Positions 21,586 through 30,975 of a stretch of DNA of 64,000 nucleotides are shown piece by piece. Position 1 is the stretch's first letter, and every line of letters begins with the position of its first letter. The position numbers and the translations under genes are program-made. Below the pieces are notes generated by a model. That model saw nothing but the letters and a program-made list of their open reading frames with translations, was not told the origin of the DNA and made no database searches. Origin of the DNA: Bacteroidales bacterium (lineage in GTDB: Bacteria; Bacteroidota; Bacteroidia; Bacteroidales; VadinHA17); NCBI GenBank assembly GCA_963668715.1, contig OY764960.1, forward strand, positions 2,681,078 through 2,745,077, given 5' to 3'.

Positions 21586-22320
21586 TTAATCATTTTTATA
21601 TTTCTCTCTTAACGAGTCTCCATCGAGCTCTATTCTATGAGAACTATGCACTAATCTATCAAGGATCGCGTCAGCGATCGTAGGTTCTCCAATAACATCA
21701 TACCAGCTTTTAACCGGAAGCTGTGATGTAATTATCGTTGACCTTTTACCATGCCGGTCTTCGAGTAACTCAAGCAAGAACAGCCTCTGGTTGTTATCTA
21801 ATGGTTTAAGCCCGAAGTCATCAAGGATCAACAGGTCCAGTTTCTCTATCCTGTTTATTTCGCTTATATAACTGCCATCTGCCTTAGCCATTTTTAGTTG
21901 ATCGAACAGTTTTGAGCAGTTACGGTAATATACTTTATATCCCTGCTGACAGGCCTGATGACCCAAAGCAGAAGCCAAAAAGCTTTTACCCAGTCCTGTG
22001 TATCCGGATATGATGATGCTTTGTTTTCTTTTGATCCATTCACAGGACGATAAACGCAGCATCTGTACTTTATCCAGTTTTCTTTTAGCGATGTAATCTA
22101 TTTGTTCCATGCTCGCCTGGTAGCGGAACCTGGCGTTTTTTATTAGTCGATCCAGTCGTCGATTATATCGATCATCCCATTCTGCCTGGACAAGATGAGC
22201 AATAACTTCATCTATGGTAAAATCTTTACTCATTCCTGATTCCTGCATTTTCCGATAGACTCTTGAGAACCCGCTCAGTCGCATCTCCTCAAGTTTCTGC
22301 ATTGTTGCTGTTTGATTCAT
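21586..22320 (-). CDS. istB: IS21 helper ATPase IstB
   Basis: GYTGLGKSFLA, LLILDDFGL, STIITSQLP, ADAILDRL. Confidence 0.95.
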   Translation of the reverse strand: MNQTATMQKLEEMRLSGFSRVYRKMQESGMSKDFTIDEVIAHLVQAEWDDRYNRRLDRLIKNARFRYQASMEQIDYIAKRKLDKVQMLRLSSCEWIKRKQSIIISGYTGLGKSFLASALGHQACQQGYKVYYRNCSKLFDQLKMAKADGSYISEINRIEKLDLLILDDFGLKPLDNNQRLFLLELLEDRHGKRSTIITSQLPVKSWYDVIGEPTIADAILDRLVHSSHRIELDGDSLREKYKND

Positions 22321-22341
22321 AATTTTCTGCTATTAAATTTA

Positions 22342-23889
22342 TTATTTGTAATTCTCTTTTCCTCGTATGTTATGATGAAAAGGAAGTTTTATTTCTATTT
22401 GGTTTTCCTGTTCTGTTTTGTGAGTGTTATTTTTCAGGCAGTTCTTGATAAACTTGAATGAGATACAGTTGTACTCAACAGCCCTGCTGCATACTATTTC
22501 CAGATCTTCCGGTTTATACCCTTTACTTAGGTTCAATACTCCCATGCAAGATTTAAATGCTTGCTGAGGATGTTCTTTGCTGTCCAACAGGAGTCCTATA
22601 AAAATCTCTACGGAACCGCCCATCTTTTTGGCCCATTTTACAAAACGATCTGTATTCCAACCATCAACAAACTGATGTTCTGCAGGCATATGACCTTTCT
22701 CTGTTGTATAACCATAAGGCCTGCGGTCTCTTTTATGAAGCGCGATACGAACACTATCCTTGTATATCTCAACATTCCTGTTCGTGTAAATGGTTTTGAC
22801 CTTCTGTCCGGTATATTGATAGGGCACGCTGTAATAATGCTTGTCCTCTCTTAGGTAAACATGGTGGTGAAATTCAACTTTAGACACCTGGTAACGACGG
22901 ATCTCATATCGCTCTTTGGGTAGTGGTCGCAATTCATTCTTTTCTATTTCATTAAATAACTCTCTTCGACTAATATCCCGGCGCTGGAACGGAGCGTTAT
23001 TTATCTCTTCAAGCTCTTCCCGGATAGCTTCATTTAACTCTCCCAGGGAAAAGAACGTCTGGTTTCTTAGCTTAGCAAAAATGCGTTGATAGACAATGCG
23101 TACCGCATTTTCAACCAAAGATTTATCCTTTGGTTTTAAAGGACGGGTAGGAAGAACAACTGTACCATAATGCCGGGCAAGATCATCATAAGTCTCATTT
23201 AATAAGGGTTCATAATTACATGCCTTGTGAACAGCTGACTTCAAATTATCCGGGCATATCCCCCGGGTGACACCTCCATAATAACGCCAGGCATTCTCAT
23301 TGGCCCAGATCCAGTCTTCAAGCTTCTGACTTTTTACTCCTTCCACATAAATCAACTGACTGGCACCAAGTATCGTAATAAATATTTCTGCCGGTTTGAC
23401 CTCTCCTGTATCCGGATCAACATAATGCATCTTTTTGCCTGTAAAATCTGCATATGTCAGATCTCCGGCTTTGTGCTCTATATGCATTCCCGCTTTCAGC
23501 TTGCTCTCCCACATGCGATAATGATGACAGAACCTGGAGTAACTAAACCCTTCAGGGTTACCTTCCTTGTATTCCTCCCAAAGCAAATAGAGCGTTACGC
23601 CAACCCGGGCAAGCTCTTTTTCATAATAAGGGAATTCATTGGATAATTCTTCATAAAGCGGATTGACTATCTTATTTCGCTTTTCAAAGACTTCTGTAAG
23701 TTCTATGTCGTTCATTTCCAAAACATCCTGGTAGGTTAACCCGGAACGCTTATATTCTGCCAGGTACTCCCCAACACTGGTTTTGCTGACCTGGGTGGCC
23801 TCTGCAATCTGCCGGATGCTAAATCGTAATTCCTGACTAAGTCGTAATATCTCTCTTATCTTTTCCACGTTGGTCCTTTTTCTTGGCAT
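22342..23889 (-). CDS. istA: IS21 DDE transposase IstA
   Basis: N-terminal HTH, HKAGDLTYADFTG, CPDNLKSAV, PKDKSLVENAV, YYSVPY. Start placed at ATG 23889. Confidence 0.93.
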   Translation of the reverse strand: MPRKRTNVEKIREILRLSQELRFSIRQIAEATQVSKTSVGEYLAEYKRSGLTYQDVLEMNDIELTEVFEKRNKIVNPLYEELSNEFPYYEKELARVGVTLYLLWEEYKEGNPEGFSYSRFCHHYRMWESKLKAGMHIEHKAGDLTYADFTGKKMHYVDPDTGEVKPAEIFITILGASQLIYVEGVKSQKLEDWIWANENAWRYYGGVTRGICPDNLKSAVHKACNYEPLLNETYDDLARHYGTVVLPTRPLKPKDKSLVENAVRIVYQRIFAKLRNQTFFSLGELNEAIREELEEINNAPFQRRDISRRELFNEIEKNELRPLPKERYEIRRYQVSKVEFHHHVYLREDKHYYSVPYQYTGQKVKTIYTNRNVEIYKDSVRIALHKRDRRPYGYTTEKGHMPAEHQFVDGWNTDRFVKWAKKMGGSVEIFIGLLLDSKEHPQQAFKSCMGVLNLSKGYKPEDLEIVCSRAVEYNCISFKFIKNCLKNNTHKTEQENQIEIKLPFHHNIRGKENYK

Positions 23890-24345
23890 CTGTATTCTCT
23901 TGTTGGTTAATAAAGCCAACAGAGATACCGATATCCCGTGGAAAATGAATGATGTGTATGAAAGTGTCCGTTTTCAGCAAGAATCACCGTCCGCTTTCAA
24001 AAGGGGCGGCTGTCCGCTTTCCGCAGGAATCCGTGTCCGTTTTCAACAAGAATTGCTGTCCGCTTTCCGCAGGAATCCGTGTCCGCTTTCCGCAAGAATG
24101 AGTGTCCGTTTTGCGCGAGAATATGCATAAATTTGGTATTTATATTTGTAAAGTTTTATGCTTATAATAATAGTTAGTTATAGTAGTCTTTGAAATGCAA
24201 ATTACCGCCTTGCTTTAAAGTTATAATATTCATCTTCAATGAGTTTTTATTAATTAAATCCAACTAACACAGAGGAAATTATCAATTAAGTTCATTTTGT
24301 ACTGAACTTATCATACCTTTGTGCAAAGGTAAAATTTTCCAGATT

Positions 24346-25762: not shown

Positions 25763-26202
25763 GATCACTGTAACAAACTAAATTAGAATGAACTTTTTGC
25801 CTCTGAGCAATGCAGTTATCCTGTTTCCAGTAGTGCTTTGAGTTCTGATAATCCTTCTAATCTTCCTTAAGTCGAGCTCTCTGTCCTTACTAAATTCTTT
25901 TTCTAAATCAAGGGTGTCTTTATGAAGACTTCTGATCGAATCACTCAATGCAATTAATGCAAGTAAAATTGCTAAACTTGAGCCTATCAAGAATTCTTCC
26001 ATCCTAGATTGAAAATTGTTTGTAAGCTTTGACCATCATATAGATTCGATTGACTTAATCAAATTTAAACAAATAATTTATTATAAGTCAAATATTTTTT
26101 TCTGCACTGTATGTGATTTACATACTGGTATTTACATTTATCACAATCAATTTATCCATAAACTTGTATTTCATATTCCTTCAATATTCTTAAAGAGTTC
26201 TA

Positions 26203-27398
26203 GTGTCATGTCAATGATTAAAAGTCGGATAAAGACGCTTAAGCTTTATCCTGGCATCGCCTGAATCAAATCTCCAGTTGATTGTAGCATTCATATTGTT
26301 GCGGGCTTCTTGCCAGGCACTTGCTTGTTCTGCAACCTCAGCAATAGTTGCAATTCTTCTATCCAGGCATTGCCCCATTAGGACATTTAATTCAATTTCA
26401 GCCATATTCAACCAACTTCCATGTTTAGGAGTATAAACAAACTCAAACCTGTCCCATAACTTTTTAGCCTCATTTGGCTCGAAAGTTTCGTATAACGAAC
26501 CAGGTTTATGTGTGCCAAGATTATCCATTACCAAGGTGATTTTTTCGGCATTTTCATAGAGTTGTGCAATTTCAGATAAATATTTAGCCCAATCCTTTTT
26601 TGTTTTTGTCTCTGTAATCTTAACATAGCGACAGCCTCTAAGTGGCTCATTGGCCATGAAGATATTGCATACGCCATTCCTGCAATATTCGTAATCGTAT
26701 TTTTTTTCATATCCTGGCTTCATATTTATTGGCTGTTTTATTTCCCCAATAAGTTGCTTCGGTGATTCGTCCATGCAAACAACTGGGAACTTTGGGTCAT
26801 ATGGCCTTTTGTACACCTCAAGTACCTTTTCCATATTTGCCACAAAATCACCATTTTGCAGGGGAGGAATTACCCACCCCTTTTTCTTCCACGGCTTTAA
26901 CTCGTTTTTTTAAAACTCTTCGCACTGTTTCATGTGATATTTTACTTATGTATTCAAGCTCAACAACTTTATCTGCCAACATCCTTAATGACCAACGGGC
27001 AAACCCTTTGGGTGGTTCACTGCAACTCAGGGCAATTAAATGAGCTTCCAACTCGCCGTCTACTTTTTTATTATATACCCTTTCTCCTTTATGACCTTCC
27101 AAGGCAATTTCCAATCCTTCTTCCACAAAACGCTTTTTGACCCTATCTATTTTTTTCATGCTTGTTTTAAGAACTCCGCATATGGCCTCGTTTGTAGATT
27201 TCCCGGATTGGTGCCTTCCCTCATCACAGTTTAATAATATTAATGCATTCAGCACCTTTTGTGATTTGTGTGAGCCTTTTGAGGCTATGCCTGATAGTGT
27301 CTCTCGTTCTTCTTTTGTTAAGGTTACTATATACTTTTTCATAGCAATTTTTTGCTAAGTTACAAAATATATACGACATTATAAAGTTGACATGACAC
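26203..27398 (-). mobile_element. Complete IS630-family element
   Basis: Perfect 12-bp inverted repeats GTGTCATGTCAA/TTGACATGACAC, TA duplication within a CTAG target. Confidence 0.92.
26211..27342 (-). CDS. IS630 transposase in two frames joined by a probable -1 programmed frameshift
   Basis: ORF A is an HTH (RWSLRMLA); slippery A7C at 26904-26911 leads into NELKPW...; ORF B has VCMDE, LVMDNL, TPKHGSWLNMAE. Confidence 0.88.
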
Positions 27399-27576
27399 TA
27401 GTTGCATTTTGATTATGCAATGAATTGGGTTCTCTGGTTTCATGAAACTTCATAAGTTTGTATGAGTTTTCAACGTCAACAAAGCTTAGAAGATAATAAC
27501 TTGTGGGGAATATGTGGGGAAAAATTGACAATAAAAAAAGCCAATCAATTGATTATTAACTGACTGGCTCTCAGAC

Positions 27577-27654
27577 TGGTCGGGGTAGTAGGATTCGAAC
27601 CTACGACCCCCTGCTCCCAAAGCAGGTGCGCTAACCGGACTGCGCTATACCCCG
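27577..27654 (-). tRNA. tRNA-Pro(TGG) with encoded CCA
   Basis: CGGGGTA acceptor stem, anticodon arm CCTGC-TT-TGG-GA-GCAGG, T-arm GTTCGAATC, ACCA end. Confidence 0.97.
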
Positions 27655-27903
27655 AAAATTATTCTCCTGTGCAAATCTAATAACTCTTTCCCTATTTTTT
27701 AACTTCTTTAAAAGTTGCTCAGTTTTAAAAGCTTCCCCTCTTGTCTCATAAGCCTTCCAGTATTTCAAAGTCCATGGTCTCCATGATCTGGTGGAAGTTA
27801 CTCTCCCTGCATTATGTCTTTTTACCCTGTTCTCCAGATCGCTGGTCTGGCCTATATAGTGCCTGTTATCTTTATCTGATTCAAGTATATATACGTAAAA
27901 CAT
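27631..27903 (-). CDS. GIY-YIG nuclease (UPF0213/YhbQ-like), copy 1; 3' end overlaps tRNA-Pro
   Basis: YVYIL...YIGQTSDLENRVKRHN...A..E..LK; last codons RGIAQSG* are tRNA nt 1-24. Confidence 0.88.
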   Translation of the reverse strand: MFYVYILESDKDNRHYIGQTSDLENRVKRHNAGRVTSTRSWRPWTLKYWKAYETRGEAFKTEQLLKKLKNRERVIRFAQENNFRGIAQSG

Positions 27904-27921
27904 ATTCTTAAACCTGGTGCG

Positions 27922-28287
27922 CTAATCCCGAAAAACACATTCCGCCGTAAGGCGGATTGATGTTTTTCGAGGATCCTCGAAAATCAGATTTCGCTTTGCG
28001 AAAGCTGATTTATCGGGACCGGACTGCGCTATACCCCGAAAATTATTCTCCTGTGCAAATCTAATAACTCTTTCCCTATTTTTAAACTTCTTTAAAAGTT
28101 GCTCAGTTTTAAAAGCTTCCCCTCTTGTCTCATAAGCCTTCCAGTATTTCAAAGTCCATGGTCTCCATGATCTGGTGGAAGTTACTCTCCCTGCATTATG
28201 TTTTTTTACCCTGTTCTCCAGATCGCTGGTCTGGCCTATATAGTGCCTGTTATCTTTATCTGATTCAAGTATATATACGTAAAACAT
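27922..28287 (-). CDS. GIY-YIG nuclease copy 2, C-terminally extended through the palindrome
   Basis: Two amino-acid differences from copy 1; the stop is displaced by the 93-bp insertion. Confidence 0.82.
   Translation of the reverse strand: MFYVYILESDKDNRHYIGQTSDLENRVKKHNAGRVTSTRSWRPWTLKYWKAYETRGEAFKTEQLLKKFKNRERVIRFAQENNFRGIAQSGPDKSAFAKRNLIFEDPRKTSIRLTAECVFRD
27926..28018. repeat. 93-bp multi-hairpin palindromic element, copy 1
   Basis: TCCCGA...TCGAGGATCCTCGA...TCGGGA; removing it restores tRNA nt 1-30. Confidence 0.9.
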
Positions 28288-28309
28288 ATTCTTAAACCTG
28301 GTACGCTAA

Positions 28310-28402
28310 TCCCGAAAAACACATTCCGCCGTAAGGCGGATTGATGTTTTTCGAGGATCCTCGAAAATCAGATTTCGCTTTGCGAAAGCTGATTTATCGG
28401 GA
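28310..28402. repeat. 93-bp multi-hairpin palindromic element, copy 2
   Basis: Identical to 27926-28018. Confidence 0.9.
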
Positions 28403-28426
28403 CCGGACTGCGCTATACCCCGCTCT

Positions 28427-28454
28427 GCCCACCGTAGCTTTAGCGAAGGTGGGC
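28427..28454. repeat. REP-like hairpin GCCCACC-GTAGCTTTAGCGAA-GGTGGGC
   Basis: 7-bp GC stem lying 4 nt upstream of the first tRNA fragment. Confidence 0.65.
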
Positions 28455-28519
28455 TCTCTCCAGCAACTTTCTGTATGGACAAACCATTAATCAGCTTCTG
28501 TTAGAGCCTTTAGACGCTG

Positions 28520-28549
28520 CAAAAATATAAAACCATTTTGGTTTTGCAA
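28520..28549 (-). promoter_or_regulatory. Bacteroidota sigma-70-type promoter of the tRNA-Pro locus
   Basis: Minus strand TTG-N19-TATTTTTG matches -33 (T)TTG / -7 TAnnTTTG. Confidence 0.65.
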
Positions 28550-28905
28550 TGTGTAACCAATAATAATGCAAAACAGCAGTGTAATCTGATGACAGGATAA
28601 CCCGGCTAAACAGACCCGGCAGACTTGCAGAATATTATTTACGGAAGTATAATGCCTGTAATATATTTTTCTGATCTTATTATGCTGGTATAAATACTTA
28701 TTTCTTGAATATCTTGAGATTCCGTAATGATTTTATTTTGAATATAATATAGCATTTAGTATAAGTGTTATATAACATATTTTATTTTCTGAAATTCGTC
28801 TCGGTTTTTCTTAAATTGTAATAAGAATCCAATTTTGTTTGAGAGGTTAATCTATTGTTAGACAAATGATTTTCGTCAAAGTTACTTGCCTGAAGCCTTA
28901 AGAAA

Positions 28906-30975
28906 ATGAAGTCAAAAAAGCTTACATGCATGAGCCCGGTAATTCTCTTATTTATATTCTTTTTACCGGAGTCCTATGCCCAGGACTATGATATGAAATT
29001 CGGGCAGATACCTATGGAAGAACTGGCAATGTTAACATATGAAAGAGACACCAGCGCCAGCGCCGTTATATTGGGTGAATTTGGGGATATCACATTCAGA
29101 TATGATGAGAGTGACAACATGTTTAAAATTAATTTTGAACGACATACCCGAATAAAGATACTTAAGGTAGGCGGGTATGACTGGGCCGATCATGAAATAA
29201 GGCTTTATCATTCTCTTAATCTGAAAGAGACAGTTGGCAGGATAAGGGCTGCTACATATAACCTTGAAGGAGAAAAGATTGTTAAATCCAAATTAAATAA
29301 AAATGCTGTTTTCGTGGATCAGGTAAGTGACAACTGGCGATATGTTAAGTTTACCATGCCTGATGTAAAGGTAGGTTCTGTAATAGAATATACTTATATA
29401 GTCGAATCCGAATATTTAGTAAATTTTCCTGAGTGGAGATTTCAGTATAGTATTCCTGTTGCCTGGAGTGAGCTCAATGTGAAAATTCCTGAATATTTTG
29501 ATTATAAACAGATCATGTCGGATTATGAGTCTGTTTACATTAGCAATCATGAGACGGGCCATGACAGAATTTCTGTATCCAGTAAAAGCAAATCTTCCGG
29601 GGTCCGGAATATGGAACCTACTTCATTTACTACCCAGAATATCGATTTTTCTGTTAATAAATATCGTCATGTTGCCAGGAATATACCTGCATTTTCTAAT
29701 GAGCCAATGATTACAACTGCAGATAATTACATCTCAAAGATACGTTTTGAACTTCAGTCTGTGCAATTCCCTCGTCAGAAAATAGAGTATTTTACTACTA
29801 CCTGGGATGCTATTGCTAATAAGCTTATCGATCATGAGGATTTCGGACATGAGCTTATTAAAGAAGCATTTTATATGAATGACTTTATTAAAGAACTGGA
29901 TAGTAGCGTTGCCGATCCAATGGAAAGGATTGAAAAGATATATGATCATATAAAAAATTATATGAAATGGAATGGTAAATATTCAATATTCGTGACAAGT
30001 GAACTAAGAAAAGCTTATAATGATCAGTCAGGAAGTATCGGGGATATTAACCTTCTGTTGACCCTGTTACTGAAAAAAGCAGGGTTCAAAGCTTATCCTG
30101 TTGTGCTAAGCACAAGGAGTAACGGGATAATAAATACACACTTTCCTCAACTGACACAATTCAACTATGTTATTTGTATGGTAGTAGAGGATAATAACAG
30201 ATACCTGCTCGATGCGTCTGATAAGTTTTGTACTTTTAATCTGCTTCCTCAAAAATGTCTTAATGGCATGGGCCTTTATATCAGTGAAGAATCAACCGGC
30301 TGGGTAGAACTTAATCCTACAAGTATTTATGATTATGAGACAAACCTGACACTTGATATGACATCTGATGCAGGTTTTAGCGGGAAACTGCAAAATACAC
30401 GAAAAGATTATGCTGCATATTATCTGAGGAGAGCAATAGATGAGGAAAATGACAGTGATGAATTTGTAAAAAAAATACAGGACAGTAACCCCGGGCTCGA
30501 AATTGTTGAATACAATTATTCTAATCTGAGTGATGTGGATTTACCTGTGAATGAGGATTATACTATAAATATTGAGGATTTCGCTATTGTTGCCGGTGAT
30601 ATGATATATTTCAATCCAATGTTTTTTGAGCATATGCAATCCAATCCTTTCAAGCTGGAAGACAGGAAGTATCCGATTGATTATTCCTATCCGAGATGTG
30701 AAAAGTATACATTGTCCCTAAAAATACCTGAAGACTATGATATAGTTGAAATGCCGGCAAAAGAGACTCTCTCAATGAGAGACGGATCTGCAACATACCT
30801 GTATGATATACAGTTTAATGAAGGCAGTCTGACGCTTGAGTCAGAGTTAAAGATAAATAAAAGCATATTTGTCTTTAACGAATATGCTGAATTGAAACAA
30901 TTTTATACAGATATTGTCAAAGCGCAATCACAACAAGTAGTATTAGAGAAATCCGTTTCACTTCCTGAGTTATGA
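28906..30975 (+). CDS. DUF3857 + transglutaminase-like exported protein (no catalytic Cys)
   Basis: FTMPDVKVGSVIEY, W.FQ..IP, GSIGDINLLL, FNYVI, LLDAS. Confidence 0.85.
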   Translation: MKSKKLTCMSPVILLFIFFLPESYAQDYDMKFGQIPMEELAMLTYERDTSASAVILGEFGDITFRYDESDNMFKINFERHTRIKILKVGGYDWADHEIRLYHSLNLKETVGRIRAATYNLEGEKIVKSKLNKNAVFVDQVSDNWRYVKFTMPDVKVGSVIEYTYIVESEYLVNFPEWRFQYSIPVAWSELNVKIPEYFDYKQIMSDYESVYISNHETGHDRISVSSKSKSSGVRNMEPTSFTTQNIDFSVNKYRHVARNIPAFSNEPMITTADNYISKIRFELQSVQFPRQKIEYFTTTWDAIANKLIDHEDFGHELIKEAFYMNDFIKELDSSVADPMERIEKIYDHIKNYMKWNGKYSIFVTSELRKAYNDQSGSIGDINLLLTLLLKKAGFKAYPVVLSTRSNGIINTHFPQLTQFNYVICMVVEDNNRYLLDASDKFCTFNLLPQKCLNGMGLYISEESTGWVELNPTSIYDYETNLTLDMTSDAGFSGKLQNTRKDYAAYYLRRAIDEENDSDEFVKKIQDSNPGLEIVEYNYSNLSDVDLPVNEDYTINIEDFAIVAGDMIYFNPMFFEHMQSNPFKLEDRKYPIDYSYPRCEKYTLSLKIPEDYDIVEMPAKETLSMRDGSATYLYDIQFNEGSLTLESELKINKSIFVFNEYAELKQFYTDIVKAQSQQVVLEKSVSLPEL

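Follow-up and report, generated by a model that had tools for sequence, protein, structure and literature searches.

A nuclease gene that takes its stop codon from tRNA-Pro(UGG): probably a by-product of compaction in a small tRNA-associated element

What does it mean for a nuclease gene to end inside a tRNA gene? The question is raised by the minus strand of the window, the whole 64,000-nucleotide stretch of Bacteroidales DNA analysed here, in which the reading frame of nuclease copy 1 (27903..27631, 90 aa, 83 codons of its own) closes with TTT CGG GGT ATA GCG CAG TCC GGT TAG. On the same strand ARAGORN placed an intact tRNA-Pro(UGG) at 27654..27577, the genome's single gene with this anticodon, and Rfam RF00005 agrees with a match of 71.3 bits from 27654. 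Positions 27654-27631 are at once tRNA nt 1-24 and the final seven codons (RGIAQSG) plus the stop of copy 1. The original prediction that the nuclease frame borrows seven final codons and a stop from the tRNA is thus exact. Among the 45 tRNA genes of this genome, the only reading frames running into a tRNA are those of its two GIY-YIG elements and one unannotated 71-codon frame before tRNA-Pro(GGG), so that running into a tRNA goes with the element. The 71-codon open frame (G000:C1, upstream of c3316155) has no GIY-YIG match and is probably there by chance.

The overlap belongs to a tandem array. A 384-bp unit, made of tRNA nt 1-21, a 93-nt palindrome, tRNA nt 22-30, 12 nt and 83 codons, is present twice, and the two units differ at 3/384 positions. 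Both stand between the host leader and the intact tRNA, which is followed by an intrinsic-terminator-like hairpin with a T run (27536..27572, minus). In the direction of the minus strand, the array is preceded by a candidate host tRNA promoter of the -33/-7 type (28520..28549; TTG, 19 nt, TATTTTTG; a consensus match) and by a host leader hairpin (28427..28454) that belongs to another family of small palindromes. A copy of tRNA nt 1-21 at 28402..28422, the third of the locus, comes next and is likely the host gene's original 5′ end. It is followed by the upstream palindrome (28309..28401) and a remnant of tRNA nt 22-30 with one mismatch (28300..28308). Nuclease copy 2 (27922..28287, minus, 121 aa; R29K and L68F relative to copy 1) then reads through the second copy of tRNA nt 1-21 (28018..28038) and the second palindrome (27925..28017) and ends at the TAG of another tRNA remnant, nt 22-30 (27916..27924).

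The two palindromes are identical, branched and situated within the D-loop of a partial tRNA copy. Their register may lie 1 nt earlier, since in relatives whose tRNA reads GGC there the palindrome follows the D-loop GG directly, without duplication. The folding of the 93-nt sequence reaches a z of -8.2 against shuffles, and these are its two occurrences in the whole 4.27-Mb genome. An Rfam scan of 27300-28950 returned the tRNA alone, the four other matches all having E above 2. In three source-sample runs a single 414-nt unitig (384+30) had a depth 1.7-3.5 times that of the upstream flank (contig depths, noisy, from one sample), which leaves an assembly artefact unsupported as the origin of the tandem; the array is spanned by no contig in those runs.

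Related leader hairpins stand before each of this genome's three tRNA-Pro genes (window 28427-28454; G000:C1, upstream of 2848232 and c3316155), two of them with a nested small palindrome, and a loose pattern for the hairpin has 13 matches genome-wide. In relatives, hairpins like these are found ahead of empty tRNA-Pro sites, and in L008 and L009 they provide the stop of the nuclease. Right after the tRNA, window 26200-27401 carries an IS630-like element with terminal inverted repeats and two ORFs, HTH and DDE_3, that do not share a frame. In the source runs the end of this element is joined to other sequences as well, and it is thus multi-copy. Window 21586-24123 holds a two-gene insertion sequence (transposase and ATPase) with 23-bp repeats at its end, which looks IS21-like.

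It had also been claimed that in copy 2 the palindrome removes the stop and adds 31 residues. The addition stands, as the palindrome is in frame and stop-free; a TAG of tRNA origin, that of the nt 22-30 remnant, still terminates copy 2. The 31 residues are incidental, because the lengths of 35 palindromes are distributed 13/13/9 over the three values modulo 3 and just 4/35 are in frame and stop-free. Selection for keeping the palindrome in frame is ruled out by the same counts.

Copy 1 consists of a single GIY-YIG domain (PF01541, E 7e-17, 61.9 bits against a cut-off of 22.6). The catalytic set of this fold (Tyr, Tyr-x-Gly, Arg, His, Glu) is complete; among 100 aligned relatives Y5, G18, R26, E62 and K66 are invariant, and Y16 and H30 are found in at least 90%. 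In the predicted model (pLDDT 92.3) the catalytic core lies within residues 1-67, the last helix spans 71-80, and residues 88-90 are of low confidence. The fold of this model is nearer to Slx1/UPF0213 than to UvrC/I-TevI: the best Foldseek matches are Slx1, HIGLE and 1zg2 (E 6-8e-4), whereas I-TevI and UvrC stay above E 0.3. The solved structures nearest by sequence are UPF0213 proteins (PDB 1zg2 and 1ywl, E 2e-7 and 4e-6), and NCBIfam gave a sub-threshold match to TIGR01453 only, at model positions 4-57 of 215.

RNase P cleaves immediately before tRNA nt +1. At this locus the predicted site falls between the body of the reading frame and its stop, seven codons before the latter, and both RNase P RNA and tmRNA (tag GENNYALAA) are encoded in the genome. 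Non-stop mRNAs receive tmRNA tagging (PMC3989581). The original prediction that tRNA maturation yields a stop-less nuclease mRNA would accordingly be a likely consequence for copy 1, where the cut in a read-through transcript would leave an end after F83; it does not extend to copy 2, which retains its stop upstream of the cut.

The Bacteroidota promoter consensus is TTTG/TANNTTTG (PMC6847099), and a match of this type stands upstream of the array at 28527. What would speak against the original prediction is an independent promoter directly before the intact tRNA together with an absence of read-through transcript, and the first half of this has a candidate: a -7 element, TAGATTTG, lies inside the reading frame (27672..27679, minus; a consensus match) and starts 25 nt before the tRNA. 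The same match recurs in copy 2 at 28063-28056. Its position is within the usual range: 25/45 of this genome's tRNA genes have a TAnnTTTG match in the 60 nt before them, compared with 2.5% of 60-nt windows drawn at random.

These matches bring in a first alternative, by which the question would be moot at this locus: the tRNA would be made from the promoter inside the reading frame, hairpins would stop most of the read-through, and the nuclease frames would hardly be expressed. Terminator-like matches inside both palindromes, which could cut read-through, agree with it, and so does an ORF-less tRNA-Pro site of a relative (L192, G001) where the 3′ end of the nuclease frame survives alone, promoter match included, as the tRNA leader. 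The internal candidate has, however, a poor match at its -33 element, and the motif is found in just 3 of the 20 members of the tRNA-Pro lineage. Judged by such matches, it is a local feature of this locus, and in the 17 members that lack it the tRNA is likely cut from the nuclease transcript. The intact catalytic residues and the A at -3, -6 and -12 of the start codon moreover make the gene look expressed at least at times; A at these positions favours initiation in Flavobacterium (PMC6847099). Six RNA runs contained only a 0.04-0.05 share of the words of the locus. Taken together, a moot overlap is very improbable. The L192 leader is in itself either a relic or the source of the last helix of the reading frame.

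The element is not confined to this genome. Nuclease matches were found in 39/61 related genomes and, at E 1e-13, in 62/401 genomes of the order; the 212 loci were reduced to 192 distinct copies in 165 retained loci, and 108 of the 192 adjoin a called tRNA. Close relatives are in Bacteroidota, mostly Bacteroidales. Two mirror layouts recur. In the 5′-layout the reading frame precedes the intact tRNA and a 5′ piece of the tRNA is duplicated upstream, and in the 3′-layout the frame follows the intact tRNA and a broken copy lies downstream. Units occur at many tRNA species and are patchy among relatives: 30 fetched tRNA-Pro(UGG) sites of the family, our own genome included, comprise five with the full upstream element, three with an ORF-less split copy, one with a partial reading frame and one with its 3′ end alone. 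Such patchiness and the ORF-less forms would agree with an element that moves or has been lost repeatedly. Viral contigs gave 0 matches to the split-tRNA-Pro pattern.

A second tandem element of the same design is found in this genome at tRNA-Asp(GUC) (L002; G000:C1:3422677-3423402, plus strand). It is composed of two 325-bp units with tRNA nt 1-39 and a 16-nt palindrome in the anticodon loop, its stop is at tRNA nt 8-10, and a promoter match before the intact tRNA-Asp is absent. Longer arrays, with 8, 6 and 4 nuclease copies in single loci, were seen in L141 (G065), L142 (G213) and L232. In L013 and L077 a second small palindrome is nested inside tRNA nt 11-13 of the split copy, and in L077 and L246 a tRNA-Ser lies upstream of the element. 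In L014 two GIY-YIG copies are embedded in a long array of copies that derive from tRNA-Val and have altered anticodon loops; one of these is called as tRNA-Phe AAA.

The overlap could be a selected limiter, as was originally predicted: RNase P would strip the stop from transcripts driven by the strong tRNA promoter, tmRNA would tag the nuclease for decay, and a harmful enzyme would be kept scarce. The conservation of the junction within one lineage is its best argument. A DNA pattern for split tRNA-Pro copies, blind to the end of the reading frame, returned 35 loci, of which 6 are ORF-less, 7 are cut by contig ends and 22 have a reading frame and an intact tRNA; with the window locus, L013 and L077 these make a set of 25. 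Their terminal copies stop at tRNA nt 22-24 in 20 cases, at nt 8-10 in one and before the tRNA in two, the remaining two being broken. Overlap is therefore found in 21 of the 23 intact elements, at a median protein identity of 54%, and it is old and its junction very stable within the tRNA-Pro lineage. A stop gained in the last own codons was seen 0 times in this lineage, though many of these codons are one change from a stop; at the DNA level the last four own codons are mostly the same, with 49% identical and 5% synonymous pairs. Overlaps have also been gained repeatedly at Arg, Asp, Ser, Gln and Met tRNAs. The absence of an internal promoter match in most of the lineage and the presence of RNase P RNA and tmRNA likewise agree with a limiter, and so do the precedent of arfA (PMC3989581) and the putative proposal made for segB (PMC2330249).

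Family-wide, by contrast, no rule emerges. Stops fall inside the tRNA in 17/31 elements of the 5′-layout and before it in 14, one of these broken; without the tRNA-Pro lineage the count is 12/23. The original prediction called for a look at homologues at other tRNAs; stops inside those tRNAs do occur, but the 5′-layout as a whole does no more than equal its mirror image. If RNase P cutting were the reason for the overlap, the 3′-layout should borrow no stops, yet 26 of 48 copies with a significant downstream tRNA-derived copy stop inside that broken copy (Fisher p = 1.0 for 17/31 versus 26/48, kin being not independent). The broken copies that supply these stops are without a full acceptor stem in 22/26 cases by alignment only, so that some might still be cut by RNase P. 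The first sample derives from 47 copies followed by a called tRNA: eight that also have an upstream tRNA were scored as 3′-layout, L054 was left out as a whole-locus duplicate, and seven without a detectable 5′ duplicate were left out (two overlapping and five not; their inclusion gives 19/38). The second derives from 69 copies with an upstream tRNA, less three that are cut off or under 70 aa and 18 without a significant downstream piece.

The history of the state points the same way. On a tree of 46 proteins (84 columns, many open forks) the overlap needs 10 changes, at least six of them forced by strong branches; shuffled labels give a mean of 11.4, and 95/500 shuffles did as well as the tree. 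Two of the three closest relatives (66% identity) have lost the overlap and carry their own stop, the third overlapping: L008/L241 end in SAFA* and L009/L216 in SAYT*, with stops that lie within a leader hairpin and fall 19 and 50 nt short of the tRNA. Tandem copies that lie upstream retain a stop ahead of the cut, as does one of two here and three of four in L232, so that copy 2 would bypass the limiter in this very locus, where the candidate internal promoter is a further point against it. Toxicity is putative as well, and the closest small GIY-YIG protein whose activity has been studied cleaves single-stranded DNA only (PMC11893778). The limiter, for all its stability in one lineage, is left unsupported by the equal rate in the mirror layout, the roughly ten changes of state and the own stops of close kin, and we regard it as unlikely.

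A bolder version of the same idea is similarly doubtful. According to it, a 384-bp element without integrase or transposase would spread among tRNA genes by means of its own hairpin and a Slx1-like nuclease of 83 codons, and would hand the control of the nuclease to the host: each transcript that yields the essential tRNA-Pro would lose the nuclease stop and pass to tmRNA, and tandem amplification would make escape copies that turn the element on.

Reasons apart from expression have to be weighed too. The borrowed residues may complete the fold, or the T-rich junction may be a functional recombination end. Residues 84-85 take part in a short strand bridge of the predicted model, so some of the borrowed tail may be used by the protein. 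Codon 83 is F, Y or I in 20/20, TT stands before nt +1 in 16/16 elements against 11 and 17 of 25 comparison sites, and the spacing from ATG to tRNA is exactly 249 nt in 16/20. On the other hand, SAFA, SAYT and HGV tails replace RGIAQSG in intact relatives, and other lineages use other frames and offsets, the 5′-layout overlaps of the whole family covering all three frames and offsets of -7, -12, -20, -21, -36, -44 and -100. The identity of the DNA at the junction could be accounted for by AT-rich codon bias and shared descent. A protein or recombination role of this kind seems improbable as the main reason for the overlap.

The reading frame lacks an own stop and runs to the first in-frame one that the abutting tRNA offers. 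The preferred reading, to which we give a probability of about 0.6, is that this is a by-product of compaction in a likely selfish element and not a selected switch. The stop is most likely borrowed because the frame is the downstream end of a compact element stripped of all spacer DNA. An ORF that abuts a tRNA acquires a stop cheaply, as tRNA 5′ ends stop about half of all frames: a stop is found within 24 nt in 65 of the 135 combinations of this genome's 45 tRNAs with three frames, and 29/45 of these tRNAs have one at nt 8-10.

Under this compaction reading, entry of the element would duplicate a portion of the tRNA gene, in some cases along with leader and promoter, and thereby leave the host one functional copy. 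Nuclease and hairpin would likely work together, like SsnA and NTS. Analogy with SsnA and SegB points to the hairpin or the empty tRNA gene, or a place close by, as the likely site of cleavage by the nuclease, and host recombination would complete the insertion; the tandem copies likely arise from unequal recombination. Deletion would then shorten the spacer that separates the reading frame from the tRNA, up to the point where nt +1 adjoins the final structured helix (residues 71-80), and the frame's own stop would be removable during this trimming because tRNA 5′ ends supply one so often. A path from duplication through erosion to abutment is suggested by elements with their own stop, which often keep a duplicated host leader or promoter (31 nt in L027), and by L166, whose frame reads through a duplicated promoter into the tRNA. 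An RNA-intermediate model, in which the junction would be fixed at mature nt +1, was disfavoured, because in several elements the leader and the upstream copy have 11-31 or more nt of leader sequence in common. Once RNase P cuts the read-through RNA, copy 1 would lose its stop and become a target of tmRNA tagging, with a lower output; such non-stop mRNA would be a side effect, tolerated rather than required.

As the evidence stands, the overlap is mainly a matter of packing. The element itself is the more valuable object, being a very small parasite of tRNA genes that pairs a hairpin with a nuclease. The family offers matched natural alleles: forms that overlap and forms with their own stop, which share a tRNA-Pro site and whose proteins are 66% identical, the two mirror layouts, and tandem copies beyond the reach of the cut. 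A real switch would mean that RNase P and tmRNA recurrently control a selfish gene of the chromosome. The nuclease may also be a new site-specific tool enzyme.

Several known systems can be compared with this element. In the tRNA cluster of phage T4, control of segB by tRNA processing, with tRNA trimming switching the nuclease off, was proposed as putative in 2008 (PMC2330249), and this is the same idea as that raised here for nuclease copy 1. SegB is a phage homing endonuclease that has a C-terminal DNA-binding part and cuts double-stranded DNA (PMC2330249), whereas the present enzyme is a single domain of 83-90 aa in a bacterial chromosome; the Seg-type C-terminal region is absent from it, the protein ending one helix after the GIY-YIG domain. 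Its occurrence is optional, as for Seg genes, with the full element at 5/30 tRNA-Pro(UGG) sites and the others without it. The available text of the T4 account mentions neither a split tRNA copy nor a palindrome (PMC2330249), and both are present in the element described here.

Same-orientation overlaps between coding sequences and t(m)RNA genes were surveyed in 2014 as sources of non-stop mRNA, with 250 cases of an upstream coding sequence in 2031 genomes and about 1 in 15000 mRNAs for all 379 same-orientation overlaps (PMC4131195). Geometry and predicted outcome are the same as here; the top cases of that survey are, however, single events in close kin (PMC4131195), whereas here the overlap recurs in many lineages of one family. 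Its main text has 0 mentions of GIY-YIG. For arfA of E. coli it is proven that an RNase renders the reading frame non-stop and that tmRNA tagging keeps its expression low (PMC3989581). There an RNase III hairpin lies inside the frame, the truncated product is active and the feedback logic is clear (PMC3989581), whereas the RNase P site here is predicted from sequence.

As for architecture, the Ssn nucleases (cd10448) are a close parallel, being small single-domain GIY-YIG genes flanked by hairpin repeats and IS-like, as is the element here (PMC11893778). The present nuclease is similarly small (90 aa, one domain), and Y6, Y17 and E64 of SsnA (PMC11893778) match Y5, Y16 and E62 by spacing. Membership in Ssn by the published SRM hairpin pattern failed: within 500 nt it was found at 0/165 loci (0.4 expected), including both loci of this genome. 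Ssn hairpins are spread in hundreds of copies (PMC11893778), whereas those here lie inside split tRNA copies and number two in the genome; the main text of that paper does not mention tRNA. Stand-alone Slx1-like/UPF0213 GIY-YIG proteins are closest by sequence and fold, but they are tied to methyltransferase operons (PMC1564403) and not to tRNA genes or palindromes. A literature search, most subscription papers being outside its scope, returned no description of a tRNA-splitting GIY-YIG element and no paper on its overlap. The regulatory idea is thus already in print, for T4 segB in 2008 (PMC2330249) and for CDS/tRNA overlaps in 2014 (PMC4131195), and the element itself is apparently an undescribed variant of the hairpin-nuclease mini-elements.
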